A stretch of 63,060 bases of DNA from Planctomycetota bacterium. Lineage in GTDB: Bacteria > Planctomycetota > UBA1135 > UBA2386. The translations under genes were made by a program, and so were the position numbers. Below the pieces are notes generated by a model. The model was not told the origin of the DNA. It made no database searches and worked only from the letters and a program-made list of their open reading frames with translations. Numbering within the stretch: position 1 is the stretch's first letter; each line of letters begins with the position of its first letter. Below, piece by piece: positions 30,198 to 63,060 of this stretch. Location of the stretch: NCBI GenBank assembly GCA_947501605.1, contig CANMWZ010000024.1, positions 1 through 63,060 on the forward strand. The letters are read 5' to 3'.

Positions 30198-30232
30198 CCG
30201 AGCGTGCCCCAGGCTGAACTGCCAAGATGGCA
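30187..30232 (+). promoter_or_regulatory. paired palindromic upstream sites before dnaK
   Basis: TGACA-gat-TGACC (30187-30199) and TGCCA-aga-TGGCA (30220-30232), about 70-110 bp upstream of a sigma54-like promoter. Confidence 0.55.
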
Positions 30233-30297
30233 CCATTGGCTTTGGGGAGGTCTCATACAACCCAAGCTGGTGCCTTGACTTCGGTCGGATGTGCTCC

Positions 30298-30313
30298 CGG
30301 CACGCCGTTTGGT
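30298..30313 (+). promoter_or_regulatory. sigma54-like promoter of dnaK
   Basis: CGGCACG-CCGT-TTGGT has correct -24/-12 spacing but GG instead of GC at -12. Confidence 0.5.
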
Positions 30314-30361
30314 TGGCGCCAGCCTTCCCGCAAGCGCTGCAGGTCCTCAGGAGCCATACCA

Positions 30362-32257
<1,896 letters not shown>

Positions 32258-47695: not shown

Positions 47696-48964
47696 TCACT
47701 CGTGGCGCAGGGCTTCGACCGGATCCATGTTGGCTGCGCGCCACGCTGGGTAGATGCCGAAGACGACGCCGACCAATGCGGAGATGCCGAACGCGAGCAC
47801 GACGTGGACCGTGCGGATGATGGTCTTCTGCGCGAAGAACTCGGTGATGCCCCAGGGCACGACCATGCCGAGTGCCACGCCGATCAGGCCACCCAGCGCT
47901 GACAGAACTGCCGCTTCGACGAGGAACTGGAAGACGATGTGCTTCTTCTTGGCGCCGAGCGCCCGGCGAATGCCGATCTCGCGGGTGCGTTCGGTCACCG
48001 TCGCGAGCATGACGTTCATGATGCCGATGCCGCCGACCAGCAACGAGATGCTGGCGATGACGGCGAGCACGAGATTGAACATGCGCTTCTGTCGTTCTTG
48101 GTCGCGCAACAGTTCGAGCGGCACGGTGATCTCGAGATCGGCCTGCTGCTTGTGGGATTGGCCGAGCATTTCGCGCAGCACGGCTGCGGTCGGCTCGACT
48201 TCGCTGGCGTCCTTGACCTTGACCTTGATCTCGTGCAGCTCGACGCGCTCGTTCTTGAAGGAGCCGCCGGACGAGGAACGGATCTCGTCGCCAAAGCGCC
48301 GGCGCGAACTGGTGATGCCCGTGAACATGCACTCGTCGTAGGTCGTGCCCTGCGGGCCGGCGGCGCGGCCCTGGTACTCCAAGACGCCGACGACGCGAAA
48401 ACGGTCTTCGCTGCCAGCCAGCACGGTTTGGTCGATCGGGTTCTCGAGCGGAAACAAGTGTCGGGCGAGGCTCGAACCCAGCACGCAGGCGTTGCTCTGG
48501 TAGGTGATGTCGGTGTCCGTGAGCCAGCGACCCTCCTCGATGTGCATGTTCGCGACGTCGAGAAAATCGGGCTGCGTGCCGACCACGACTGTGCTCTTGA
48601 AGTTCTCTCCGCGAGTGACGTTGCGCGGGATCTCGCGCACCTCGACGACGGTGGCGTGAGGCAGAGTGTTGCGAACGCGCGTTGCCTCGGCGTAGAGCAA
48701 GCCGAAGGCCATGGCCTGGAATGAACTCTGCGTGCTGCTCTGGGCTGTGTCGGGGGGGCGCGTGCTGCGCAACAGGATGTTGGTGACGCCAAGGGCGCGG
48801 AAGCGCTGCAGGGCTTCGTCGCTGGCGCCTTCGCCGACGGCGAGCATGGCGATGACCGAGGCGACTCCAAACAGGATGCCGGCGGTGGTCAGCGTGCTGC
48901 GCAGCTTGTGCAGCATCAGGCTCTTCAGGCCGAGCCGAATGGTGCGGACACTGTCGCCGATCAC
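47696..48964 (-). CDS. MacB/FtsX-type ABC permease
   Basis: [58 protein letters not shown]. Confidence 0.95.
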
Positions 48965-49710
48965 GCTGGCACTCCGTTGGCTTTGCCGCGCTCGGTTTCC
49001 GTCAGGCTCTCGATCACGCCATCCTTGAGCCAGAGCACGCGATCGGCGCGTTCGGCGACCTTTGGGTTGTGGGTAACGATGACAATGGTCACGCCCTCTT
49101 GGCGCAGTTCGTCGAGCAGGTCGAGGATCTCACGCTCGGTGTTGCTGTCGAGGTTGCCGGTCGCTTCGTCCGCGAGCAGGAACAAGGGGTCGTTCATCAG
49201 CGCTCGGGCGATGGCAACGCGCTGTTGCTGGCCACCGGACAGCTCCATCGGCTTGTGCAGCAGACGACCACCAAGGCCCACTCGGTCGGCGAGCTTCTCG
49301 GCCTTCTTGCGCGACTCCGGGCCCACCCGGTTCTGGTAGAACAGCGGCACTTCGAGGTTCTCCAGGACCGTCAACTGCGGGATCAGGTTGAACGACTGGA
49401 AGATGAATCCCAGCTCCTGTCCACGCACATCGGAGAGCGCGTCGTCATCGAGCTGCGAGACATCGCGGCCGCCGACGAGGTAGTGGCCACTGGTTGGGCG
49501 GTCGAGACAGCCAAGGATGTTGAGCATGGTGCTCTTGCCCGAACCCGAGCGTCCCATGATCGCCAGGTAGTCGCCGGCGTGAACCTGCACCGACACCCCG
49601 TTCAGTGCCTTCACGACATTGTCGCCCATCTTGTAGTGACGATGGACCTCACGGAACTCAGCGATGACACGCCGCGTGTCGGCCGCGATTGGCTCGGGGT
49701 TGGGCTGCAT
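48961..49710 (-). CDS. ABC ATP-binding protein (MacB/LolD family)
   Basis: [43 protein letters not shown]. Confidence 0.95.
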
Positions 49711-49713
49711 GAC

Positions 49714-51942
49714 TCAGCGATTGCTTTCCGTCGGGGCGCCGCCGCCCGGGGCCCCGCCACCAGGGGCGCCACCGCGTCCGCCCATCATGCTGCGCATCTG
49801 CTGGCGCATCGCCTCGTACTTGGTCCAGGTTTCACCGAGACCCTGCACCGCGGCCAGCACGGCCGGCTCTTCGAGCATTGCCGACAGCGATCGGCGGTTG
49901 TCGATCTCTTCGTGGCGATCGGGGAACTTGTTCTTCAAGAAGGTCTGGATCTCGCTGCCGAGTTGGCGGTAGTCCGCCATCTGGGCCTGCAACTCCGGCG
50001 TCATGCTCGGCATGCCGCCGCCGCTGCCACGGCTGCCTCGCCGATCCACGGCTGTGCCTTCGGCCGTAGCGGTCCCGCCGGCTTGCGTCGGGGGTGTTGG
50101 TGTTGCGCCGCTATCGGTTGCGGGCCTGCTCGTGGACGGCACTTCGGGCATCGGCACCGCGGGCTGTGGCAAGCTGGGAGGCTGCACGCTCGGCGGCAGG
50201 GTGAGGTAGACGACGTCGCCGACGTCGAGGCCCTTGGTGATCACCACGTGTTCGGAGTTGTGCTGGCCGATCTCCACGGGCGCGGCTACCGGACCATTGG
50301 GTCCGCGTTTCCAGACGTAGTTGGCCGAGCGATCGCGACGCACGGCCTGCAGCGGCACGGCGAGAACGTCCTTGAGGTGGTCGACAAGGATCGTGACTGC
50401 TCCGGCCATGCGCGAGCGCAGCATGCCGCCGGTGTTCTCGCCGTCGAGTTCGACGACTGCGGTGTAGACCTTGCGATCGCTGTTCATCCAGCCGTTGTTG
50501 CTGTCGGCCTGCTGCGCGATTCGGATCACGTGGCCAGCGAACGACCGATCGGGGAAGGCTTCGATGTCGAGGTGCGCGTTTTGGCCGGTGCGAACCTGAC
50601 TGACGACGGCTTCCTGGACCTTGACCAAGGCCTGCATGCGCGTGGTGTCAGGGAGCACGATGAGATCCTGGCGATCGCGGACTTGGATGCCTTCGCGGAT
50701 CGCTTCCGAACCTGAGCGACCGCGTTCTTGGCGGGCGTAGATGACGAGGCCAGGCGTTGGGGCGTAGACGATGGCGTTCTTGATCTGGCGCTCCAGGTTG
50801 TCGAGGCGGTCCTTGGCCAGTTGGTACTCGGCGAGCGCACTCTTCAGGGAACTGTCCGCCTTGGTGACTTCGGCTTCGTTGGTCGCCAGCACGCGTGCGA
50901 GTTCGAGACGCGCGTTGTCGACATCCTGCGTCAGCTTCTCCTTCACCTTGAACAGTTCGTAGCTGACCAGAAGGTCGAGGTCGTTCCAGGAGAGGCCCAC
51001 TTGCGAGAGTCGCCGTTGGAACTCGATTTCGTCCTTCTCCAGCTCGTTCTCGGTGATGAACTTCTTGTTGGCGAGCCGGCGACTGTGGCCGAGGTAGGTC
51101 TCCTGGAACTTCAGGTCAGCCATCGCCAGTCGGATCTTGTCGACCTGCTGGAGGACTTTGTTGGACAGGTCGCCCATGTCGCGGCCGACTGCATTGTTGC
51201 CATCGGCGTCGACCAGCAACTCGTTCACCTTCCCGACCAACGGGGCATAGCGTCGCGGGTCGATCTGGCTGATTGCGCTGCGGTTCTCCGCCGCCGCCAG
51301 GGTGGCCGCATCCGTCGCTGCGAGCACCGCCTTCGTGTCGGCGCCGCTGTCCACACTGGGCTCGCGCGCGTCGTTCTTCACTGCTTCCGTGGCAGCGCTG
51401 GCCAGAGGCGTCGAGACCAAGTCCGACAGCTTCTTGACCATGTCGGAGTTGCGGCCGCGAGCCGGATCGGCAGTGTTGGCGGCAATGCGACCGAGGAACT
51501 TCTCGAGTTCCATCTCCGCGATGCGCAGGTTGCTCTCGGCGGTGCGGCGCTTGGCCGTCAGTTCCTTCTGCTGAATCTCGAGGGCCTTCGTGGCCTGCGC
51601 GAGACTGGCTTCGGCCTTGGCGACGGTGATCCCCTGGTTGGCGCGCTTGTCGACCAACTCGCTGGCGTCGAGTTCCACCAGCTTCTCGCCCTGCGCTACG
51701 ACTCGACCCTCTTCGATCAAGAAGATGATCGTCGCTTGTCCTTCGACTTCGGAGCGCACGACCGTCTCGCGCTGGGCTTGTAGTTCCGCGTTCTCCTTGA
51801 CGGTGATCTGCAGATCGCGCCGTTCGACGGTCAGCAGGCTCGGGTCCTGGCCGGTGGTGGTGGCCTCGCCGCTGCACGAGGCCAGGGCAAAGAGGGTTGC
51901 TAGGGCCGCGACTGGCTGGTGCATGTAGTTCATCGTCGTCAT
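49714..51942 (-). CDS. periplasmic adaptor (HlyD/MacA-like) lipoprotein, unusually long
   Basis: Lipobox LASC, IEEG..V.QGEKLVELD, long coiled coil, YAPTPGLV, V.IG.HN...V.I.KGL..GD.V, Pro/Gly-rich tail. Confidence 0.88.
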   Translation of the reverse strand: MTTMNYMHQPVAALATLFALASCSGEATTTGQDPSLLTVERRDLQITVKENAELQAQRETVVRSEVEGQATIIFLIEEGRVVAQGEKLVELDASELVDKRANQGITVAKAEASLAQATKALEIQQKELTAKRRTAESNLRIAEMELEKFLGRIAANTADPARGRNSDMVKKLSDLVSTPLASAATEAVKNDAREPSVDSGADTKAVLAATDAATLAAAENRSAISQIDPRRYAPLVGKVNELLVDADGNNAVGRDMGDLSNKVLQQVDKIRLAMADLKFQETYLGHSRRLANKKFITENELEKDEIEFQRRLSQVGLSWNDLDLLVSYELFKVKEKLTQDVDNARLELARVLATNEAEVTKADSSLKSALAEYQLAKDRLDNLERQIKNAIVYAPTPGLVIYARQERGRSGSEAIREGIQVRDRQDLIVLPDTTRMQALVKVQEAVVSQVRTGQNAHLDIEAFPDRSFAGHVIRIAQQADSNNGWMNSDRKVYTAVVELDGENTGGMLRSRMAGAVTILVDHLKDVLAVPLQAVRRDRSANYVWKRGPNGPVAAPVEIGQHNSEHVVITKGLDVGDVVYLTLPPSVQPPSLPQPAVPMPEVPSTSRPATDSGATPTPPTQAGGTATAEGTAVDRRGSRGSGGGMPSMTPELQAQMADYRQLGSEIQTFLKNKFPDRHEEIDNRRSLSAMLEEPAVLAAVQGLGETWTKYEAMRQQMRSMMGGRGGAPGGGAPGGGAPTESNR

Positions 51943-53558
51943 TCAGCGGTGCGTGGTGCGGGAACGTCCAGAGCGGGGTCGAAACGCAGGCCTTGCGACT
52001 CGAACAGCAGTCCTTCGAGGTCTCGCATCAGTTCGATGCGGGCGATCGAGTAGTCGACGATTGCGGCAGTCTGGCTGAGTTGGGCCAGCAGCAGCGAGTC
52101 CTTGGCGTCGAGCACGTCGAGCGCATTCGTGCGGCCGGCGGAGTAGAGCTCCGTCGTGCTCTCAACGCGCAACTCGGCGACCTTCAGGGCATCGACCTGG
52201 ATCGTGTAGCTGTCGAACGCTGCCTGGATGTTGCGCAAGGCGGCGCGGATCTGGCCGCCGATGCTGTCTTGGCTCTGCTCGCGGGCGCGGATCTGCACAT
52301 CCAGCGTGATGAGCGACGAGCGATAGTTGTTGCGCTCGAGGTAGCGGTTGAGGGCAAGGTCGAGGCGGAAACCCGGCGACCACTGCACGTTCGACCAATC
52401 TGGCTCGATGCTGTTGCCGCCCACCGACGGGACCGAGAACGAACCGGTGAAATCGAGTCCCATGCGCAACGCGTCCTCGGCGACAGCGACTTTGCGCGCG
52501 GCGTCGGCGACTTGGTCGAGCACGGTCCGGTGGTCGTAGCGGCGGTCGAGCGCCAGTCCGACGGCGGTCGACTCATCGATGCTCAAGGCCAAGACGCCGC
52601 GCTTCACCAGCTCGGCCAACTCGTTGGCATCGAGCGACACCTGTGCCGTCACCGGCAGACCGAGCGTCAACTTGAACTGGTCCAGCGCGGTCGCCAGCTG
52701 GTTCTTGGCGCGCACGCGGTTGTTGCTGGCAGTGAGTTCGCTCTGCCGTTCGCGGCCGAGATCGCTGATGGTCTTGCGAGTAGCGTTGAACTCCTCCTCG
52801 GTGCGTTCGCGCGAGGTGCGGACCGACAGGTAGTTGGCCTCGACGTTGTCGAGGTTGCGCATCTGCTGCACCACGCCGTAGTAGGCGCTCACGATCTGCG
52901 TCGCGAACGTGGCGCGGAACCGCTCGAACGTCCGCATCTGGTAGATGACGTTGCGTTCGGCTTGCGTGAGCGGTTCGCGTGCGATGCGTTGACCCGAGCC
53001 GCGCAACAGCGGTTGCGTCACTGTGAGATTGAGGATCGAGCTGCCGTCGAACGCATCGCCCTCGATCACCGAGCGCAGGAACGTGTCGACAAAGCTGGCG
53101 ACGAGCGACGTGCCCGAGGTCGAATCGACGGCCGCGCCAAGATTGGAGCCGACCGACAGGTCCGCCCGTGAGTCGCTACCCTGGCCGTTGATCCCGACGT
53201 CGATCACGCCCGCGTAGCGAACCTCGAAGTCCCGGTGCACGCGGGTGAGGTCGAGGGCGGCCAAGTAGAGCTGTTCCTTCTGGCGCTGGAACTCGCGGCT
53301 GTTCTCCGCGGCGACGTCGAGGGCCTGCAACAGCGTCAGCTCGACGGGCTCGGGCGTGTCGAGCAATCGCTGGCGCAAGGTGTCGACCGGCCGCACGATC
53401 GGCATGGACTTCTTCTGACCGGTGACCTGTTCGGCGGCCTCCTCGAGGATCGGGTAGATCCGGCTGTCGACTTCGTCCTTGCTGCCGGCCGCTGACCAGC
53501 AGCCGGCGAGCAGGAGGGTGACGAGCGGCGTGGAGAAGGGGAGGTGACAACGCATCAT
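51939..53558 (-). CDS. TolC family outer-membrane efflux lipoprotein
   Basis: Lipobox LLAGC, LTLLQAL..A.ENSRE, QPLLRG, ALDVLDAKDSL. First gene of the exporter operon. Confidence 0.9.
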   Translation of the reverse strand: MMRCHLPFSTPLVTLLLAGCWSAAGSKDEVDSRIYPILEEAAEQVTGQKKSMPIVRPVDTLRQRLLDTPEPVELTLLQALDVAAENSREFQRQKEQLYLAALDLTRVHRDFEVRYAGVIDVGINGQGSDSRADLSVGSNLGAAVDSTSGTSLVASFVDTFLRSVIEGDAFDGSSILNLTVTQPLLRGSGQRIAREPLTQAERNVIYQMRTFERFRATFATQIVSAYYGVVQQMRNLDNVEANYLSVRTSRERTEEEFNATRKTISDLGRERQSELTASNNRVRAKNQLATALDQFKLTLGLPVTAQVSLDANELAELVKRGVLALSIDESTAVGLALDRRYDHRTVLDQVADAARKVAVAEDALRMGLDFTGSFSVPSVGGNSIEPDWSNVQWSPGFRLDLALNRYLERNNYRSSLITLDVQIRAREQSQDSIGGQIRAALRNIQAAFDSYTIQVDALKVAELRVESTTELYSAGRTNALDVLDAKDSLLLAQLSQTAAIVDYSIARIELMRDLEGLLFESQGLRFDPALDVPAPRTAE

Positions 53559-53712
53559 GGCGATCGGGGGGAGCTGCCTAGCCACAAGTTGGGCGGGCAT
53601 TTACGGCTGGACTCGATCACTTGGCCAACTGTTTTTTCTCGTGCGGCATGGAGCAGCGCTTAGCATCTCCGCCCTGGTTGGCGGTTTGGCTACTGGTTTG
53701 GTTCCAGGGGGC

Positions 53713-54378
53713 ATGGTTTCCATCTTGATCACCGCGGGTCCAACTCGCGAGTACCTCGATGACGTTCGATTCTTGTCGAACGGCAGCACGGGGCGCATGG
53801 GGTTCGCCCTGGCCGAGGCGGCGATGCAACAAGGTCACGAGCCCGTGCTTGTTCTCGGGCCAGTCGAATCGACCCCGCCGCAGGGCGTGCGGGTTTTGCC
53901 CGTGACGTCGGCGCTCGAGATGCGCGATGCGGCGGAGCGATGCTTCGCCCAGTGCCAAGTTGCGATCGCCGCGGCGGCCGTCGCGGACTGGCGACCGGCC
54001 CATCGGAACCCTGGCAAGCCGAGCCGTCAGGGCGCTCCGGTCGGGGTCGAACGGCTCGAACTGGTACTGAATCCTGACATCGTTGCGGGCCTTGCGGACC
54101 ACAAAGGCGACCGCGTCGTCGTCGGATTTGCCCTCGAGTCTGCTGCGGCCTCGATGGATCAGGCGGTCGCGCGTGGGCGGGACAAGCTGCAGCGCAAGCA
54201 GCTCGACCTGTGCATTTGCAACCGCTCTGACGCGATCGGTAGCGCTGCCAGCGAGACCGTCCTGCTGTTCTCGGACGGAAGTCGCCGCGACTTCGGTCCG
54301 CAGGACAAGTCGGTGACTGCGGCGGCGATCGTCCGCATCGCCGTTTCCCTTTACGAGCAGCGGCAGAGGTCCTCGTGA
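53713..54378 (+). CDS. coaB: phosphopantothenate--cysteine ligase (stand-alone CoaB half of CoaBC)
   Basis: LITAGPTREYLDDVRFLSN.STG.MG, AAAVADW, NPDIV, VGFALES. No flavoprotein CoaC domain. Confidence 0.9.
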   Translation: MVSILITAGPTREYLDDVRFLSNGSTGRMGFALAEAAMQQGHEPVLVLGPVESTPPQGVRVLPVTSALEMRDAAERCFAQCQVAIAAAAVADWRPAHRNPGKPSRQGAPVGVERLELVLNPDIVAGLADHKGDRVVVGFALESAAASMDQAVARGRDKLQRKQLDLCICNRSDAIGSAASETVLLFSDGSRRDFGPQDKSVTAAAIVRIAVSLYEQRQRSS

Positions 54379-54466: not shown

Positions 54467-57196
54467 GTGGGCAAGAGCAAGAGCACCAAGTTCGTTCCGG
54501 TAGAACAGGCGCCGACAGGTCACATGTCGGACGGCGCTCGCGAGTTGGTCGCGCTGCTGTTGTCCGGCCTCGCCCTGTACTCGCTGTTGTGTCTGGCGAC
54601 GTTTCACACCGCAGACCTCGACCAGCCAATCCCGGTCGGCGGAGGTCGCAACCTCGGCGGTACCTTCGGCTACTACCTGGCTGGCGGTTTCACCTATGTG
54701 CTGGGCTACGCCTCGGTGGTGCCGTTCCTGGCATTGCTCGGCTGTGCCATTGCGTTGTTTCTCCATCGCACCGTGGAGCGCGTGTGGTTGAAGTCGATCG
54801 GCGCCCTGACGTTTGCCGCGATGCTCTCGCTGCTCCTGGCGGCGCCAACTGGCCACGGCAGCATGGGCGCAGCACTCGGCTACACCGCAATGACGCCGCA
54901 GGGTCCTGGTGGCGCGTTCGGAGCCAATCTGTCGCCGCGGCTCTTCGACGTGTTCGGCGGTCCCGGGCGCGTGCTGTTGCTGGCGTTTGGTGCGCTGCTG
55001 TCACTGCTGGTGGCCACGGAGTGGATGTTCTCGCAAATGCTGATGCGCGCAGTGGCGACGCTGCGGCGATCTGTCGCTCGGCTGCGGCAGCGTCGACCGG
55101 CCTTGGCCTGGGGTGTGTCGGGGGCGATGGACGCCGAGGACGAAGTTGCGAAGCAGCCGGTTCGGACCAAGCCAGCGGCTCCGCCATCCCGCAAGCCAGG
55201 GACCAAGGTGGTCGCCCCCGCTATCGACGATGATGAGGACGCCGAGGATGCACTCGGCGACGGCGACAAGGAGCGCGATGACAATGCCGCCGCCGTCTTG
55301 CCCGCGTTGCGTCCGAAGCGGGGCAAGCAGAAGCCGCCGTTTTCAGAGGTCGACGACGAGGATCTCGACGACGAGCCAGTCGACGCATCGGGTGCGGCCA
55401 AGAAAGGCAAGCCGGCGGACAGCGCCAAGGCCGACTCGGGCAAGGCCAGTCCGCAGAAGGCCACAACCGCCAAGGCGCCCGCCAACGACGAGGCCGAGCA
55501 GCCGCCGCGTCCGCTGGAGCCGCCCAAAATCGTGGTCCCGATCTCGCGGCCAAAGATCGTCAAGGCGCCGCCAAAGCCGAAGCCCGTGGCGCAGAGCGAC
55601 CTGCCATTCGACGCGGCCTACCCCTATCCACCGGTCGAGCTGTTTCGCGAAGCCGAGACTTCCGACGTCGGTGCGACCGCTGACCAACTGCAGAAGGGCG
55701 GTGAAGCGATTGCGGCGAAGCTGCGGAGCTTTGGCATCGAATCCCAGGTCGTCGCGGCTTCGATCGGCCCCGCCGTTACGCAGTATGAGCTGCGCCTTGC
55801 CGACGGGATTCGCGTCAACAAGGTCGCCGGCTACTCCGACGACTTGGCGGCGGCACTCAAAGCGTTCTCGGTGCGCGTGGTCGCACCGATTCCGGGCAAG
55901 GACACGATCGGCATCGAGGTGCCGAATGCGACGCGGCAGAAGGTCTTCATGCGCGACCTCCTCGAGCAGTTTGGCCGGTCGGAAGACCTCGCGGTGCCGC
56001 TGTATCTGGGCAAGGATGTCGCTGGCAATCCGATCGTCGAGGATCTGGCGCGAATGCCGCATCTTCTGATCGCCGGCACGACCGGCTCGGGCAAGTCGGT
56101 GTGCATCAACGCGATCCTGTTGTCGATCCTGATGACGCGCACGCCAGAACAGGTCAAGCTGATCCTGGTCGATCCCAAGATGGTCGAGTTGCAGGCCTAC
56201 AAGCAGGTGCCCCATCTCTGCTGCGAGGTCGTCACCAACATGAAGAAGGCGCCGGCGGTGCTCCAGTGGGCCGTCGACGAGATGGAGAACCGCTACACGA
56301 TGTTGTCAGCTGCGGGCGTCAACCACATCAAGAGCTACAACCGCCTCGGTCAGCAAGAACTAGAGAAGCGGATGAAGCGTGAGGTCGAGCCCGATCGCAT
56401 CCAGTTGCCGTACATCGTTATCGTGATCGACGAGTTCGCTGACCTGATGAACGTGGCGCAGAGCGAGGTGGAAGAGTCCATCCAGCGCCTCGCACAGAAG
56501 TCCCGCGCCGTCGGGATGCACGTCATCCTGGCGACGCAGCGACCGAGCAGTGAGGTCATCACCGGCATCATCAAGGCCAACTTGCCCTGCCAGATCGCCT
56601 TCAAGGTGAACCGCAAGATCGACTCGCGGGTCATTCTCGACAGCAACGGCGCCGAGAAGCTCCTGGGGCATGGTGACATGCTCTACGTGCCACCAGGCGG
56701 CGGCGCGATGACGCGCGCGCAGGGTGCCTTCGTCAGCGATGACGAAATGCAGTCGGTGGTCCAGTTCCTGGAAGAGCACGGCCAGCGGCCGGACTTCCTG
56801 CCGGACTTGGTCCAGACGCAGTCCACGCACAACAAGGGCATGGAGCATCGCGATGAGCTCTACCGCAAGGCGGTCGAGGTGATCCTCGGCCAGCAGCGCG
56901 GGTCGGCGACGTTGCTGCAGCGCGCGCTCGGGGTCGGCTACACCCGTGCGACCCGCCTGCTCGAGATGATGGAAGAAGACGGTCTCGTTGGCGCGTTCGC
57001 CGGCAGCAAGTCGCGCGAGGTGTTGATGACGTTCGAGGAGTACTTGGCGCGAGAGGTCGCGATCGCCGAGGAAACCGCGAACCGTGAAGCGGGTGAGGGT
57101 GGCGATGCAGGGTCCGTTCTCGCCGAGGGGCCCGGTGCAGAGGCCGCAGCTTCGGACTTGCATGACGACGACGCCGGGGTCTCGCCGACGGCGTGA
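54467..57196 (+). CDS. ftsK: DNA translocase FtsK
   Basis: N-terminal TM domain, linker, alpha domain, PHLLIAGTTGSGKS, IDEFADLM, LATQRPS, GAEKLLG.GDML, gamma domain LLQRALGVGYTRATRL. Confidence 0.97.
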   Translation: MGKSKSTKFVPVEQAPTGHMSDGARELVALLLSGLALYSLLCLATFHTADLDQPIPVGGGRNLGGTFGYYLAGGFTYVLGYASVVPFLALLGCAIALFLHRTVERVWLKSIGALTFAAMLSLLLAAPTGHGSMGAALGYTAMTPQGPGGAFGANLSPRLFDVFGGPGRVLLLAFGALLSLLVATEWMFSQMLMRAVATLRRSVARLRQRRPALAWGVSGAMDAEDEVAKQPVRTKPAAPPSRKPGTKVVAPAIDDDEDAEDALGDGDKERDDNAAAVLPALRPKRGKQKPPFSEVDDEDLDDEPVDASGAAKKGKPADSAKADSGKASPQKATTAKAPANDEAEQPPRPLEPPKIVVPISRPKIVKAPPKPKPVAQSDLPFDAAYPYPPVELFREAETSDVGATADQLQKGGEAIAAKLRSFGIESQVVAASIGPAVTQYELRLADGIRVNKVAGYSDDLAAALKAFSVRVVAPIPGKDTIGIEVPNATRQKVFMRDLLEQFGRSEDLAVPLYLGKDVAGNPIVEDLARMPHLLIAGTTGSGKSVCINAILLSILMTRTPEQVKLILVDPKMVELQAYKQVPHLCCEVVTNMKKAPAVLQWAVDEMENRYTMLSAAGVNHIKSYNRLGQQELEKRMKREVEPDRIQLPYIVIVIDEFADLMNVAQSEVEESIQRLAQKSRAVGMHVILATQRPSSEVITGIIKANLPCQIAFKVNRKIDSRVILDSNGAEKLLGHGDMLYVPPGGGAMTRAQGAFVSDDEMQSVVQFLEEHGQRPDFLPDLVQTQSTHNKGMEHRDELYRKAVEVILGQQRGSATLLQRALGVGYTRATRLLEMMEEDGLVGAFAGSKSREVLMTFEEYLAREVAIAEETANREAGEGGDAGSVLAEGPGAEAAASDLHDDDAGVSPTA

Positions 57197-57307
57197 GAAG
57201 TCGGCGGCCCATGCATCGAAGTGCAAAGTTGTCCACCGCTGCGGTCCGCGCGCGCGTGCGGAAATGCGTCGTAGGTGGCAAAACTCGCGTGCGCAGCGCC
57301 TTGAGGC

Positions 57308-57323
57308 TGGCACGTCATCTGCT
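57308..57323 (+). promoter_or_regulatory. sigma54 (-24/-12) promoter of the FtsK-like gene
   Basis: TGGCACG-TCAT-CTGCT has the invariant GG and GC at the correct spacing, 47 bp before ATG 57371. SD AGGGAGGG follows. Confidence 0.7.
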
Positions 57324-57370
57324 TAGATTGCGCGCTACCTAGAGTCCTAGCCGGGCTCAGGGAGGGCCTG

Positions 57371-59323
57371 ATGACCGTGAACAGCCTCGCCGGTGCGTCC
57401 GTCGATGTCCGCCTGCGCCGTGCCGTTTGGTATGCGCCGCTGGTGCCGATCGCAATTTCGATCTTCGCCGTCTCGGCGTTGGTGTCTTACCACCTCCGTG
57501 CAGGCGCCATCATGGAAGCGCGCACGGTGGCGCAGAGCTTCATCATCGGCATCTACCAGTTTCTGGGCTGGGTGCCGTCCTGCATGTTCTTCGGCCTCGT
57601 GCTGGCCTGGAGTTCGATCTGGTGGGTTGCCGGTTCGATCGAAGCCCCCGGCAAGAAGTTGGCGCGCGTGTTTGCGTTGACGCTGGCGCTGGCGGTCTTC
57701 GGCAATCTTGATGAGCCGGGTCTGCACACCGGGGCGCTCGGTGCGTTCCTGGGCGGTGGCCTGGTCAGCATCTTCGGTTCGTTCCTCAGTCACCTGCTGT
57801 TGGCACCGCTGACGTTCTTCGCGCTGCTGCTGGCGACGGACTACTTCTGGATGAGCTTCTTCGAGCGTCGAGCCTTCGAGCGCGCGATTCCACCAACCCA
57901 AGTCGCAGCGGCGGGGTGGCACACCAGCCAGGACGTCGGCGTCGAGGCCGATGTCACGGAAGAGTTCAAGTCCTTGGCGCGGTTGATGCCGGCGACCGGG
58001 CCCCTACAAGGCGAAGCCCCTCACTACCCGCCGCAGGATGTCGAGCAGGCGCTCGATCGCTTTTTTGACGGCGGTGAGGCCGCAGCCGTTGCCGCAGAAG
58101 CTGCGTGGACGGCCGCGCTCGAGATCGAGGCCGAGGATGCCGCGAACCCGATCGACCAGCGCGCCGATCAGGCTGCCGTCGGCGGTGAACCGGAGGAATG
58201 GTCGAGGTTGTCGTACTTCGAGCGACGGCAGTTGCGCGCCGAACGCGACGCGCAGCGGGCGCCAGCCCTGAACGCTGCGGTCGACGACATGGATCGCGCC
58301 GCTGTCGTGCCGCAGTCAGTGGAAGAGGCGGCGCCGTCCGTCGCGATCCTGTCGGACTTCGACCGCAAGGAGATCGAGAACGCCATCGATTCGGGGGCGG
58401 CAGCGGAAGCGGACTACGCGTTGCCGCGTCCTGTCGCGAGCGGTAGCGCGGCGGGCACTTCGGATCCTGTCCCGAGCCAGGCTCCAACTCTCGATGACGA
58501 CGAGTTCAGCGTGGCGGCGGCGGAGCTGAACAGCGTTGCGATTCAACCAAGCTACCCGCCCGCTCTCCGTGAGTCTGCGGCGGCGTCCCTCGACGAGGCG
58601 GCGTCGGAAGATGCGGCGGCTACGAACGCCGCGAGCTTGGTGGCTGCGGGCGACGACGTGGTCCGCGTTCCCGTGCTCGATGAGTCGTCGCTGCGCCAAG
58701 CTCTCGGATTCGCTACGGATGCCGAGGCTGTTGCCGAATCGGCGGCCGGCGAATCGGATCCCGACGCATCGGAGAGCAGCGATGGCGTGGCTCCAGACGA
58801 CGGCGGTGCGACGGAACCCGTTCGCTACGAAGTCCACACCGAGCCACTGTTCGCGACTCCGGCGGCTGCCTTCGAGGTCGAGGAGGGTGCGGACGAGGAT
58901 GCCGACGAGCCTGCCAGCGGGATCGATCCGGATGCCGCGCCGGAGAATCTTGTGCGTCTCGAGCGCCCGCGAGGGTTCCTGGCTCCGGTGGTGGCCTACG
59001 ATAGCGAAGAGGTCACGCATGCGTCCGCGGCCGCTGCAGCCGACGATGACGACGGTGTGGCTTTTGACCATGAGCGTCTGGTTGCGATCCCGCGGCCGCT
59101 GGAAAGTCCGCGCCAGCAGAGTCTGTTCGTGACTACTCTCGATGACTCGTTGGTCCGCGAGGCCGTCGAGATGCTCACGTCCACACGGCGCGCAAGTGCA
59201 GCAATGCTCCAGCGCAAACTGCGGATCGACTACAGCCAGGCGATGGAGCTCCTGGCCTTGCTGGCACACCGAGGAATGCTCGAACTTGCAGGCGACGGCA
59301 CGCAGGGCCGCGTCGTCACCTAA
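57371..59323 (+). CDS. FtsK-like protein: membrane domain + acidic linker + gamma domain, no ATPase motor
   Basis: N-terminus resembles the FtsK TM region (GALGAFLGGGLVSIFG...LLLATD). C-terminus DSLVREAVEML...RASAAMLQRKLRIDYSQAMELL aligns to the gamma domain. No Walker A/B. Confidence 0.85.
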   Translation: MTVNSLAGASVDVRLRRAVWYAPLVPIAISIFAVSALVSYHLRAGAIMEARTVAQSFIIGIYQFLGWVPSCMFFGLVLAWSSIWWVAGSIEAPGKKLARVFALTLALAVFGNLDEPGLHTGALGAFLGGGLVSIFGSFLSHLLLAPLTFFALLLATDYFWMSFFERRAFERAIPPTQVAAAGWHTSQDVGVEADVTEEFKSLARLMPATGPLQGEAPHYPPQDVEQALDRFFDGGEAAAVAAEAAWTAALEIEAEDAANPIDQRADQAAVGGEPEEWSRLSYFERRQLRAERDAQRAPALNAAVDDMDRAAVVPQSVEEAAPSVAILSDFDRKEIENAIDSGAAAEADYALPRPVASGSAAGTSDPVPSQAPTLDDDEFSVAAAELNSVAIQPSYPPALRESAAASLDEAASEDAAATNAASLVAAGDDVVRVPVLDESSLRQALGFATDAEAVAESAAGESDPDASESSDGVAPDDGGATEPVRYEVHTEPLFATPAAAFEVEEGADEDADEPASGIDPDAAPENLVRLERPRGFLAPVVAYDSEEVTHASAAAAADDDDGVAFDHERLVAIPRPLESPRQQSLFVTTLDDSLVREAVEMLTSTRRASAAMLQRKLRIDYSQAMELLALLAHRGMLELAGDGTQGRVVT

Positions 59324-59394
59324 GAGGCTGGCAGGTCGTAGCGACCGCCTAGCAGCACCGTTCGGCACTTTGTGCAGCGCAGCCCTCAGTCAGT

Positions 59395-59442
59395 CCACTC
59401 GCAGGGTTGGCCATCCGCAGGGTTGACCATTCGTAGGGTTGG
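59395..59442. repeat. 3 x 16-bp direct repeat CCAYYCGYAGGGTTGR upstream of dnaB
   Basis: CCACTCGCAGGGTTGG / CCATCCGCAGGGTTGA / CCATTCGTAGGGTTGG, contiguous. Confidence 0.85.
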
Positions 59443-59544
59443 ATCTTGCGTCGGGGTCGGCCGGCGGTAGATCGGACCGGCTCGATTTCTCGAACGCGCA
59501 GATTCCAAGGCGCAGCATCTTGATCGCACGGAGGCGGTAGACAC

Positions 59545-60894
59545 ATGGTCGATTTCGGGTCCTCTCTGGACGGGCGCGGCGTGCCGCAGAATCTTGAAGC
59601 CGAGCGCTCGGTCCTCGGTGCGCTGCTGCTCCACGCCGATGCGGTCTGCGACGTCGGATTCCTCAAGGCGGAGGACTTCTATCTCCCCAAGCACCAGCAC
59701 ATCTACACGTCCATCCTATCGACCTTCAATTCGCGCAACGCGACCGACCCGATCGTGGTCGAAGAAGAGCTCGATCGTCAAGGCGTGCTGCAGGAAGTCG
59801 GAGGGCGCGGGCAGCTACTGGACCTCCTCGAGAGTGTCGTTTCGGCTGCCGGCATCGTCTACCACGCCGAGATCGTCCGCGAGAAGTCGATCCAGCGAAG
59901 GCTGCTCGAGACGTGCCTCGATGTTGCGCGCCGTTGTTACGAGAACCAGGCGGCGGCCAAGGACCTGCTCGACGAAGCCGAGCGCCAGATCTTCGAGATT
60001 GCTCGGATGGACAAGTCGAGCGAGGCATCGAGCATCACCGACATCTTGCAGCAGACCTTCGAACGCATCGACAACCTGCGCGCCCGCAGTTCGCGCGTGA
60101 CCGGACTGCCGACCGACTACCTCGATCTCGACGACATTATGGGCGGCCTGCAGCCTGGGGAACTGATCATCGTCGCGGCGCGCCCGTCGATGGGTAAGAC
60201 CTCGTTCGCCCTGAACCTGACCGAGCGCGTCGCGAGCAACAAGCACTCGGTTGCGTTCTTTTCGCTCGAAATGTCGAGCCAGCAGGTTATCCAAAACATG
60301 CTCTGCTGCCGGGCGCAGATCGACGGCCAGGCGATGCGCAAAGGTCGCATCACCGACCAGCAGTACCGTCGCCTGCAGGAAGAAGCGGCGACGCTCTACG
60401 AGGTGCCGATCTTCGTCGATGATTCGCCGGGCCTGACAATCACGCAACTGCGTGCCAAGTGCCGCCGCCTGAAGCAGAAGCACAGCATCGAGATGGTCGT
60501 CGTTGACTACCTCCAACTGATGGCCGCCGGTGGCCGCGTGGAGAGTCGCCAGCAAGAGATCTCGACGATCTCGCGCGGTCTGAAGGGCCTCGCCCGAGAA
60601 TTGTCGGTGCCGGTGATCGCGCTGTCGCAGTTGAATCGCGACGTAGAGAACCGCGATGATCACCGTCCGCGCATGAGCGATCTGCGCGAATCAGGCGCGA
60701 TCGAGCAAGACGCGGACGTCATCGTTTTGCTGCACCGAGACGAGTACTACAAACCCACCGAGCAGAACGCTGGTCTTGCCCAGATCATCATCGCCAAGCA
60801 ACGCAATGGGCCGACCGGTGACGTCACGCTACGGTTCTTCCGTGAATTCATGCGGTTCGAGAACTTCACGCGGCGTGCCGAGCCCATGCAGTAA
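59545..60894 (+). CDS. dnaB: replicative DNA helicase
   Basis: PQNLEAERSVLG, AARPSMGKT, FSLEMS, VDYLQL, LSQLNR, DLRESGAIEQDAD, AKQRNGPTG. Confidence 0.98.
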   Translation: MVDFGSSLDGRGVPQNLEAERSVLGALLLHADAVCDVGFLKAEDFYLPKHQHIYTSILSTFNSRNATDPIVVEEELDRQGVLQEVGGRGQLLDLLESVVSAAGIVYHAEIVREKSIQRRLLETCLDVARRCYENQAAAKDLLDEAERQIFEIARMDKSSEASSITDILQQTFERIDNLRARSSRVTGLPTDYLDLDDIMGGLQPGELIIVAARPSMGKTSFALNLTERVASNKHSVAFFSLEMSSQQVIQNMLCCRAQIDGQAMRKGRITDQQYRRLQEEAATLYEVPIFVDDSPGLTITQLRAKCRRLKQKHSIEMVVVDYLQLMAAGGRVESRQQEISTISRGLKGLARELSVPVIALSQLNRDVENRDDHRPRMSDLRESGAIEQDADVIVLLHRDEYYKPTEQNAGLAQIIIAKQRNGPTGDVTLRFFREFMRFENFTRRAEPMQ

Positions 60895-60898
60895 CCGA

Positions 60899-63060
60899 GT
60901 GGCGGTTGCGCGAGCATTGGAGTGGACCGGGCGTGCGACCGCCGCGTCGTGGTTGCTTGGCCTTTTGGTCGCCACGCTGCCGGCCCACGCTGCGCCGTCC
61001 CTGGTGACTCCGGCACCGATTGCTCCAGCCTCGGCGGACTCTCTGCCATCCGACTCTCTGCCATCCACTGGTGAGCAAGATCCTGAGCAGGGACCGCCGC
61101 CGGTCGTGCAGGAACCACTCGGTCCACCGCCGCCGCCCAGGGACAAAGGTGTCCAGGGTCCAGGGAGCCAGGAGCCGGGCACGCAAGACCTTGGCGCCGA
61201 AGTGCTGGTCGACGAACGGGCACGCACGCTGCTTGGCCGCATCGTGCATGCCATTCGCGTGCTTCAGGTCTCGCGCGAGGCGATTCGGCCCGCGCCCGAA
61301 CAGGTGGCCGAGGAGATCTCGCGCGGTCTGCGCTCGCATCAGGGCCAGAAGCTCGAGTTGCGCAACGTCACGGCCGACATCGGCAGCTTGTGGTACGAGC
61401 GCCGCATTGCCGTGCGTGCATTCGTGCAACCAGTGGGCGAAGAGGTCGATCTCGTTCTCGTCGTCGAGCTGGAAGTGCAGGTCTACGAGCGGGTCGAGTT
61501 TCTCGGCCTGCAGAAGTTCCCGCGCAGCGAGGTCGATGCCTTGCTCGGCCTCTACCCGGATCGACAGGTGACCAGCACCGAGTCACAGGCGATGCGCAAC
61601 ATCTTGCTCGCCAAGTACCGCCGTGCGGGCCTCGCGTTCTGCAGCATCGATCTGGTCGAGCGCGAACCAGCAGAAGGCGAGAGCAGTGGCGAGCGGCCAC
61701 GCAAGATCGTGACCTTTCGCATCGATGAAGGTCCCGCTGTCACGGTGGGGACGGTGGAGTTTCGCGGCAACCTGTCGTTCCCAGGCGTGCACTCGACGTT
61801 CTTCAGTACGGGCGACTACCTCGTGCGCGAGTCGCGGATGCAGTGCGCACCAGCGGGCATGATCGGCGGCGGCGGACCGTTCTCGCGCGAGATCCTCGAG
61901 GAAGACGTCGATCGCTTGCAGCTCTTCTACCGCAGCCGTGGATTTCTCGACGCCGTGGTCACGGTCGCCGACGTGCGCTTCCGCGAAGGCCGGAGTGTCG
62001 TCGACCTCGACTTCGTCGTCGTCGAGGGGCCGCGCTATCGAATCCGATCGATCCAGCTGTCCCATGTCTCGCGCACGGGGCCTGTGGCGCCTGAGCACGT
62101 GCAGTACTCACCGGACCTGATCCTGCCGTTGCTGATCAGCAGCGTCGGCGACTTCTACGACCACACGAGCATCCGTCGGGACCAGCAGGCGATCGAGGAC
62201 TTCTACGGCGACCGCGGCCACCCGAAGGCGTCCTTCCCTGGCATGGACCGGGTTCCTGGTGCCTTCAAGGTGAGTTGGCCAAAGGAGCATTACGACCATC
62301 AGGCCGGCGTGGCGTTGGTGTTCGAGATCGACGAGGGCAGCGAGAAGACGCTGCGCGACGTGCTGGTGCGGGGCAACTCGAACTCACGTGACCACGTGAT
62401 CCGCCGCAAGGTCCGCGCGCTGCCTGGCGAGCGTGTCGACATGACCCAGGTGAACCGTTCGATCCAGTACCTGAATCGCACGCGCTTCTTCCAGGACCAG
62501 TTCACTTTGGCGGGACCGCGTTTTGAGTTCATGCCGGTGCCAGGTCGCGAGGATCTGCTGGACCTCGCAATCGATGTGACCGAGGCCGAGACGGGCGAGG
62601 TGCGGTGGGGCGTTGGCGTGAGTTCGGGGGCGGGCGCGCAGGCGACTCTTCAGTTCACGAAGCGCAACTTCGATCTGTGGAGTCCACCGTCATCCTGGAA
62701 CCCGATCACCGTGTTCGAGGAGATTCTCGATAACCGCGCGTTCCATGGCGGCGGTCAGAACCTCGACCTGCTGCTCGCACCTGGCACGCAGATCAGTCAG
62801 TTCCAACTCGGGTTCACCGAGCCTGACCTGTTCCGCGAGTACTTCGAGACCACGGAGCTGCGCATCAACGGGCGCCGCACGCTGCGTTTCCGCGATGGTT
62901 ATCGCGCCGACACGCTGGGCATCGACGTGGGGCTGTCGCGCTACCTGACCGACGAGTTCAGCCTTGGCGTCTCGGCGCGGCAGGAGACGACCAATGTGCG
63001 CGACATCGCGCCCAACGCCACGAGCCTGGTCTACGACGCCGAGGGCAGCACCGAGATGCG
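60899..63060 (+). CDS. bamA: outer membrane protein assembly factor BamA (truncated by the window end)
   Basis: Frame is open from GTG 60899 (start approximate) and absent from the ORF track because it has no stop in the window. Signal peptide, POTRA repeats (FRIDEGP..TVGTVEFRGN, FYRSRGFLDA, VRGNS..RDHVIRR) and barrel start (TGEVRWGVG...KRNFDL). Confidence 0.9.
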   Translation, partial: MAVARALEWTGRATAASWLLGLLVATLPAHAAPSLVTPAPIAPASADSLPSDSLPSTGEQDPEQGPPPVVQEPLGPPPPPRDKGVQGPGSQEPGTQDLGAEVLVDERARTLLGRIVHAIRVLQVSREAIRPAPEQVAEEISRGLRSHQGQKLELRNVTADIGSLWYERRIAVRAFVQPVGEEVDLVLVVELEVQVYERVEFLGLQKFPRSEVDALLGLYPDRQVTSTESQAMRNILLAKYRRAGLAFCSIDLVEREPAEGESSGERPRKIVTFRIDEGPAVTVGTVEFRGNLSFPGVHSTFFSTGDYLVRESRMQCAPAGMIGGGGPFSREILEEDVDRLQLFYRSRGFLDAVVTVADVRFREGRSVVDLDFVVVEGPRYRIRSIQLSHVSRTGPVAPEHVQYSPDLILPLLISSVGDFYDHTSIRRDQQAIEDFYGDRGHPKASFPGMDRVPGAFKVSWPKEHYDHQAGVALVFEIDEGSEKTLRDVLVRGNSNSRDHVIRRKVRALPGERVDMTQVNRSIQYLNRTRFFQDQFTLAGPRFEFMPVPGREDLLDLAIDVTEAETGEVRWGVGVSSGAGAQATLQFTKRNFDLWSPPSSWNPITVFEEILDNRAFHGGGQNLDLLLAPGTQISQFQLGFTEPDLFREYFETTELRINGRRTLRFRDGYRADTLGIDVGLSRYLTDEFSLGVSARQETTNVRDIAPNATSLVYDAEGSTEM

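Follow-up and report, generated by a model that had tools for sequence, protein, structure and literature searches.

The window analysed here is a stretch of 63,060 nucleotides from a Planctomycetota bacterium (contig CANMWZ010000024.1 of assembly GCA_947501605.1, positions 1 to 63,060). Directly downstream of its full-length ftsK lies P0001 (57371..59323, + strand), an intact open reading frame (ORF) of 650 amino acids running from ATG to TAA. P0001 is a motor-less FtsK paralogue, composed of an FtsK-type membrane domain, a flexible acidic linker and a C-terminal head formed by a short motif and a gamma winged helix. We consider it an even call, judging from sequence comparisons and predicted structures, that the gene arose as an old duplicate of ftsK, has been inherited vertically since, has lost its motor and now serves as a passive membrane tether for clamp-loaded DNA and as a partner of FtsK. 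Somewhat more tentatively, this integral membrane derivative of FtsK may bind the sliding clamp and tether the replisome or nascent DNA to the FtsK site, and would then be a coupler of replication and division in planctomycetes without FtsZ. Planctomycete division without FtsZ still awaits an explanation, and a motor-less FtsK, kept beside ftsK by no fewer than 21 to 23 families, is a new candidate part of the machinery. A functional clamp motif would provide a direct physical link from replication to the membrane or division site, and the gene would also illustrate how a translocase turns into a tether by loss of the motor and a changed partner of the head.

Domain architecture of the paralogue

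The N-terminal membrane domain of FtsK type comprises residues 1-172 (57371..57886, + strand). When a profile of 34 orthologue N-termini was aligned by hhalign with a profile of 30 FtsK N-termini, the probability was 99.2% (E-value 2e-19, 159 columns). The Pfam family FtsK_4TM matched P0001 only weakly (E 0.87), and among five relatives scanned it was above the cut-off in two (P0021 and P0022) and slightly below in a third. The AlphaFold2 (AF2) model displayed a confident N-terminal helical bundle, with predicted local distance difference test (pLDDT) values mostly above 90. Simple hydropathy gave only two windows above 1.6 and is no firm guide to the number of membrane helices. A fold search with the membrane domain alone gave helical bundles of a generic kind and nothing more telling (best Z 7.2, root-mean-square deviation (rmsd) 7.0, 146 aligned residues).

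The acidic linker that follows (57887..59113, + strand) is rich in Ala, Glu and Asp and is predicted to be disordered, with pLDDT mostly below 50. Residues 173-585 (413 amino acids) include 90 Ala, 44 Glu and 42 Asp, and Lys and Arg make up 6% as compared to 17% in the FtsK linker. A single helix near residues 275-310 was modelled in this mostly disordered middle part. The length of the linker ranged from 141 to 771 amino acids in 61 orthologues, and it contains a few conserved islands: GVE...L near 190-203, RLSYFERR at 279-286, RGFLAP at 536-541 and IPRP at 573-576.

At the C-terminus, the Pfam family FtsK_gamma was detected at residues 591-638 (38.6 bits, cut-off 30.6), and the profile match to gamma domains in the PDB had an E-value of 1.5e-14. 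The AF2 winged helix, confident over residues 590-650, was most similar to the gamma domain of Pseudomonas aeruginosa FtsK (2ve8; Z 9.5, rmsd 1.5, 60 aligned residues), with other winged helices within 1 Z. The top ten Foldseek rows were all FtsK gamma domains, none at E<=0.001.

No motor was found between these two parts. The Pfam scan of P0001 matched neither the alpha domain nor the SpoIIIE motor, and NCBIfam gave no match at all; a custom motor profile matched none of 289 orthologues and nothing in the six frames of 57197-59545. A Walker-A pattern occurred in 14 of the 289 orthologues, P0001 not being among them, and these matches were set aside as unsupported by the motor profile. A RecA-type alpha/beta motor with Walker A and B is required of FtsK/SpoIIIE translocases. 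P0001 has the FtsK_4TM-type membrane domain and the gamma winged helix of such proteins and no motor, and is for that reason placed outside the FtsK translocases. An earlier note, made from the letters of this DNA, had described an intact 650-residue ORF right after ftsK, with an FtsK-like N-terminus, a gamma winged helix and about 420 residues of Asp/Glu/Ala-rich sequence in place of the motor, and this description holds; of the Pfam domains it expected, FtsK_gamma was present and FtsK_SpoIIIE absent as foreseen, and FtsK_4TM stayed below its cut-off in P0001.

A putative clamp-binding motif ahead of the gamma domain

Between the linker and the gamma domain lies a putative motif for binding the beta-clamp DnaN, Q582-F586 (QQSLF, preceded by R581; 59114..59128, + strand), which the earlier note had missed. 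It suggests a different and better-supported partner than those proposed there. A QxxLF within about 45 residues ahead of the gamma domain was present in all 25 paralogues of f1, the family of the window genome, in 113 of the 137 database orthologues that have a gamma domain and in none of 133 FtsKs. In shuffled sequence QxxLF occurred in 0.3% of windows, with a shuffled mean of 0.22 for the 25 f1 proteins, although the significance of all these motif counts is overstated by the kinship of the sequences. Outside f1, the motif stood right before the gamma domain in 5 of 47 proteins (3/3 in family f7 and 2/2 in f19), and a looser pattern in 7 of 47. Anywhere in the linker, QxxLF was found in 11 of the 47 (0.43 expected) and a bare LF in 35 (14 expected).

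The motif segment is extended and of low pLDDT in the AF2 model. Its invariant positions are 1, 4 and 5 (Q and L-F), the same that are given as most important in the general clamp motif Q-phi-x-L-F (bioRxiv 10.64898/2026.05.27.728225). Among 140 motifs, position 2 was most often Q (n = 67), followed by G (n = 29), M (n = 14), R (n = 9) and K (n = 8). A non-aliphatic residue in this position is shared by DnaE (QKMLF), DinB (QGSLF) and MutS (QKELF) of the source genome, G000 (91% complete). The motifs of these three enzymes sit where clamp motifs are expected.

A complex of DnaN from the source genome with residues 560-650 of P0001 was predicted with a score of 0.67, the best of three controls reaching 0.01. 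Of 157 solved pairs, 116 attain the mark passed by this prediction, as do 2 of 215 mismatched ones, counts that are only roughly valid with the alignments used here. The runs shared at least 92% of contacts, and the pLDDT of the partner was at least 69. In the predicted complex, Q582-F586 contact G173, L176, P241, V246, V357 and M359 of DnaN, which align to G174, L177, P242, V247, V360 and M362 of the Escherichia coli clamp pocket (PMC3716654). The motif is thus predicted to bind the canonical peptide pocket of DnaN. Gamma residues 617-620, in the alpha2-alpha3 loop, are also predicted to touch the clamp, and this contact could explain the f1-specific R618.

The strong constraint on motif and gamma domain in f1, the position of the gene beside dnaB and the predicted docking to DnaN together lead to the clamp-tether reading. 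Several observations weigh against it. The scarcity of QxxLF before the gamma domain outside f1 means that clamp binding cannot be the function of the whole family. Likewise, the adjacency to dnaB is specific to f1, and rimO follows the paralogue instead in 19 of the 27 loci scanned outside f1. Position 2 of the motif, mostly Q or G, departs from the aliphatic consensus. QxxLF is also frequent by chance, with 189 matches in 3490 coding-like ORFs of the source genome, and of 20 such matches picked by hand and scanned, three were textbook clamp partners (DnaE, DinB and MutS); the real evidence is therefore the conservation of the motif inside a hypervariable linker. Finally, since many clamp-peptide complexes have been solved, the passing prediction expresses likeness rather than binding, and possibly a memory of any QxxLF peptide, and its controls include no mutated motif.

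Elsewhere in the source genome, a DUF72 protein (L255, G000:C9:97312-98352) carries the N-terminal sequence RKRQQFLF, a clamp-type motif of the same style, which may hint at a role of this protein in DNA repair.

Proposed mechanism and comparison with known systems

The clamp tether may be depicted as follows: The membrane domain, by its homology to that of FtsK, would bring the paralogue to the membrane site of FtsK. The acidic linker would act as a spacer that reaches across to the nucleoid and does not itself stick to DNA, and the head of QxxLF and gamma would catch clamps at or behind replication forks. Replicating or new DNA would thereby be held at the membrane or division site, coupling replication to FtsK-driven segregation in the absence of FtsZ. 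The ancestral form was probably a direct DNA tether through gamma, which may still operate in a few lineages, and f1 appears to have moved to a grip on the clamp.

Relative to the FtsK/SpoIIIE proteins (PF13491, PF17854, PF01580, PF09397), the N-terminal membrane domain and the C-terminal gamma domain are homologous and in the same order, and the gene lies directly after ftsK. The paralogue differs in having no motor and hence no translocation, a diverged DNA-reading helix, a longer acidic linker and a QxxLF that is missing from this place in 133 FtsKs. As a functional analogue, with no homology claimed, E. coli CrfC is closest to the proposed mechanism: it is a nucleoid partition factor that keeps nascent DNA together and uses a short motif to bind the beta clamp (PMC6374313). 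CrfC is a dynamin-like GTPase without a typical membrane-binding motif, whereas the paralogue is an enzyme-less integral membrane protein. With the pentapeptide clamp partners DnaE, DinB, MutS and UmuC, the paralogue shares Q-x-x-L-F in an extended segment and the same predicted DnaN pocket, and its motif matches the style of those in DnaE, DinB and MutS of the source genome. Those proteins are soluble enzymes of synthesis and repair, whereas here the motif resides on a non-catalytic membrane protein. In the literature searched, which left most subscription papers outside its scope, neither a motor-less FtsK paralogue nor a membrane-bound clamp partner derived from FtsK was described; a membrane-embedded clamp receptor would, if confirmed, be of a kind not found in that literature.

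The DNA-reading face of the gamma domain

The gamma winged helix (59141..59320, + strand) has diverged from that of FtsK. By E. coli numbering, transferred through an alignment of PDB structures, G1294, R1297 and R1300 were present in 73, 72 and 72 of 73 FtsKs, and in 21, 14 and 15 of 72 paralogues. P0001 retains Q614, R615, R618 and I619, and has D620 in place of G1294, Q623 of R1297 and E626 of R1300; positions E1303 and E1306 are occupied by A629 and A632. The recognition helix reads IDYSQAMEL as compared to VGYTRATRL in ftsK, just as the earlier note had stated. R1300, E1303 and E1306 define an E. coli mutant blind to the FtsK orienting polar sequences (KOPS) (PMC2680272), and a background on gamma trimers is given in PMC3384302. 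P0001 has neither these three residues nor the G-Y-x-R start of the helix expected of a KOPS-reading gamma domain. None of G1294, R/K1297 and R/K1300 was found in 23 of the 25 f1 paralogues and a single one in the other two, and the wing arginine R1320 was a glycine in 19 of 25. Judged by these residues, the gamma domain of f1 has lost its KOPS-reading face.

One alternative to the clamp tether is a direct tether from membrane to DNA, in which gamma binds KOPS-like or non-specific DNA and anchors the chromosome without translocation. All of G1294, R/K1297 and R/K1300 are indeed retained in 9 of 72 orthologues (in families f12, f42, f61 and f95 and in one protein of f103). The winged-helix fold is kept, as are Q1288 (62 of 72 paralogues) and R/K1289 (68 of 72) in helix 2, and the gamma core of the f1 paralogues is net basic, with a mean of +3.0. 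For f1, however, the losses of the DNA-reading residues, of the wing arginine and, in P0001, of all three KOPS-blind positions make such a tether improbable. A scan of the source genome for KOPS was uninformative, as the 195 copies of GGGNAGGG on G-rich and 114 on C-rich 20-kb windows are confounded by GC skew.

Two further observations concern gamma domains in the phylum. Two single-contig genomes of family f17 (G067 and G129, about 9.4 Mb each) had no FtsK-gamma match, as opposed to 391 of 401 phylum genomes that were matched, and it is possible that the FtsK gamma was lost or strongly diverged in f17. In the f22 genome G072, two ORFs of about 143 amino acids directly after ftsK (L116:3990-4955) resemble stand-alone gamma winged helices and do not match the membrane domain; these are possibly another gamma duplication.

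The XerD-facing surface

The gamma residues that contact XerD in E. coli are Q1288, R1289, R1292, I1293, G1294 and N1296 (Table 1 of PMC5052618). P0001 is identical at four of the six, and genes similar to XerC and XerD are present. R1292 was found in 24 of 25 f1 paralogues and in none of 22 f1 FtsKs. These observations would suit an activator or tether of XerD, a KOPS-blind gamma stimulating or sequestering XerD at the membrane and thus splitting the two jobs of FtsK gamma. The engineered FtsK[blind] and XerC-gamma constructs of E. coli resemble such a state, with gamma lacking the KOPS residues and keeping Q1288, R1289 and R1292; they differ in bearing a motor or being fused, and the XerD residues that face gamma in E. 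coli, E184 and Y187, are not conserved here. Among 24 XerD-like proteins with a readable segment, from 31 loci, E184 occurred once and Y187 never, and 12 had Arg or Lys at position 184, Arg in the source genome. This position is highly variable within f1. Outside f1, none of the six commonest states at position 1292 is Arg. Moreover, the same gamma surface contacts DNA in FtsK and is predicted to touch DnaN in the paralogue, and its conservation can be explained otherwise. A role towards XerD is accordingly regarded as quite improbable. The earlier note had proposed a membrane-anchored DNA or XerD tether: a tether as such is plausible, KOPS reading by this protein is unsupported and the case for XerD is weak.

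The XerD-like proteins of loci L191-L220 and L124 mostly lack E184 and Y187, and half have Arg or Lys at 184. To judge from these sequences, Xer activation in Planctomycetota may run through another interface.

Distribution, origin and selection

A profile of the paralogue matched 33 of 36 f1 relatives, the three misses being genomes only 69-89% complete. In the wider survey, which was confined to Planctomycetota, 401 genomes were searched with a gamma profile, and second gamma domains turned up in many families. Upon a new search of 52 genomes, mostly picked for having at least two gamma matches, 40 loci were retrieved. The same motor-less gene, usually directly after ftsK, was found in 13 families outside the order of the window genome, and contig-edge fragments of it in two further families. 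The collected gamma domains of paralogues amounted to 72 from 23 Planctomycetota families, 25 from f1 and 47 from outside. At 60 single-gamma ftsK loci of 53 families no paralogue was found downstream, one of the loci being without downstream DNA; these loci were selected for the absence of a second gamma match and give no estimate of frequency. The relatives of the paralogue belong to Planctomycetota; their annotation is hypothetical protein, 'Ftsk gamma domain' or, in error, DNA translocase FtsK. The ESM Atlas contained three close clusters, hypothetical proteins with FtsK_gamma only and mostly from Planctomycetota.

A tree built from the joined columns of the membrane and gamma domains (100 rows and 226 columns, one FtsK row without an N-terminal match having been dropped) placed 40 paralogues on one side of a single branch and 60 FtsKs on the other (Shimodaira-Hasegawa-like approximate likelihood ratio test 98). 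The subgroups f30/f93/f103 and f42/f61/f95 recurred on both sides. A single old duplication of ftsK is likely behind all the paralogues. The tree is a quick one with long branches and no approximately unbiased test, and the backbone of the tree of FtsK motors (FastTree, 119 rows) is weakly resolved; neither gain versus loss nor the age of the duplication is therefore fixed.

The paralogue is under purifying selection, as the check proposed in the earlier note bore out. Within the genus (5 genomes, 10 pairs), the ratio of non-synonymous to synonymous substitution rates (dN/dS) was 0.03-0.25 in the membrane domain, 0.13-0.27 in the motif and gamma domain and 0.31-0.61 in the linker. In pairs with G018, a genome of another genus, the membrane domain gave 0.46-0.62, and this higher ratio is probably due to saturation of dS. 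Contig pieces from an independent DNA library span most of the ORF with no substitution listed. Contigs from three RNA-library studies cover parts of it and agree with the assembly; they give neither strand nor level, this DNA may itself come from two of the samples, and they do not prove expression.

That the gene is decaying or stems from misassembly is hardly credible on these data. The linker is of low complexity and very variable, and three orthologues (L056, L100 and L119) are split by frameshifts in the assemblies. Conservation across families nevertheless refutes this reading: 23 families lie on one branch that mirrors the FtsK subgroups, the two folded domains have dN/dS values well under 1, and independent contigs agree. 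The absence, decay or misassembly named in the earlier note as reasons to abandon its proposal was thus not encountered. The three frameshifts all lie within the linker and may be assembly errors or real changes, and the orthologue at L053 ends prematurely in the gamma wing.

The same data bear on an explanation that centres on the membrane domain: the paralogue would, through its N-terminal domain, co-assemble with FtsK or recruit division and peptidoglycan proteins, or limit the assembly of motor hexamers, the head being secondary and drifting. The membrane domain recurs from family to family and is the part under the tightest constraint, the gene adjoins ftsK in most lineages, and both the DNA-reading residues and the motif vary between families. 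The N-terminal domain is reported to be the division-essential part of E. coli FtsK (PMC12283558), and FtsK is reported to nucleate the divisome in the FtsZ-less Chlamydia (PMC11975371). A drifting head does not agree with the strong constraint on motif and gamma in f1, nor does a pure partner of FtsK with the 5 of 25 f1 loci in which the two genes are apart. As the main role of the protein we find this rather unlikely. It is, however, compatible with the clamp tether, and both can hold.

Gene order at the locus

The local order is coaB-like gene, ftsK, paralogue, dnaB and bamA-like gene, all on the + strand. The coaB-like gene (53701..54378; Pfam DFP) is a conserved upstream neighbour of ftsK. 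The ftsK gene itself (54467..57196) encodes the Pfam 4TM domain, a linker, an alpha/beta (SpoIIIE) motor and a gamma domain with an intact G-Y-T-R-x-x-R helix. The ORF of the paralogue starts 174 nt past ftsK, and dnaB, the replicative helicase gene identified by domain scan (59545..60894), begins 221 nt beyond its end. The bamA-like gene (POTRA/Omp85; 60776..63058, with approximate start) follows dnaB in f1 and exceeds the end of the window. A scan for promoters and terminators gave no promoter-like and two terminator-like sites, which is chance level.

Of 25 f1 loci read, 24 had dnaB directly after the paralogue and 20 had ftsK directly before it; where ftsK was no longer adjacent, four of the five loci retained dnaB. 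The earlier note had asked for a test of whether the order ftsK-paralogue-dnaB is conserved, and this is so in f1 and not elsewhere, where rimO usually follows. In single-gamma genomes, rimO came after ftsK in 5 of 7 scanned loci. The order ftsK-paralogue-rimO looks ancestral and the link to dnaB specific to f1.

Division genes and other observations

The earlier note had also suggested a component of division without FtsZ. A conserved motor-less paralogue in a lineage without FtsZ is what was found, and it may have a part in division. In the source genome at 91% completeness, neither FtsZ nor FtsQ was matched and HTH_25 was not found; FtsW/RodA (n = 2) and MreB were present, which has no bearing on the partner of the paralogue. 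According to PMC12283558 and PMC12288469, ftsK is essential and the sole universally kept canonical division gene in planctomycetes, and a preprint reports that 'Saltatorellota' have lost FtsZ along with most of the genes for division (bioRxiv 10.1101/817700). RodZ_C was found in none and MreB in 66 of 68 planctomycete genomes irrespective of the paralogue, which has no bearing on a replacement. RodZ, RocS and Noc are membrane-anchored adaptors of DNA or cytoskeleton, with an anchor and a helix-turn-helix-type head, and RodZ lies near ftsK-rimO in other bacteria. No sequence relationship of the paralogue to them was seen.

A 361-residue actin-like protein of the source genome (L272:837-1922, on contig G000:C10), downstream of a coiled-coil-like ORF, weakly matched MreB_Mbl (E 1.7e-16) and is distinct from the true mreB; a filament protein of the MamK or saltatorellin kind is a possible identity. 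Besides the dnaA adjoining dnaN in L221, the genome encodes a divergent DnaA-like protein (L260, G000:C3:127282-128571) with weak matches to DnaA_N, the ATPase and the C-terminal domain. Its most strand-skewed octamer was GGTGGTGG (312 on G-rich and 55 on C-rich windows), for which codon bias is a possible cause and which we take to resemble a Chi-type motif. Within the window, positions 30227-32257 encode an ordinary dnaK and the minus strand at 47696-53600 an ABC/TolC-type efflux gene set, both judged from the translations.

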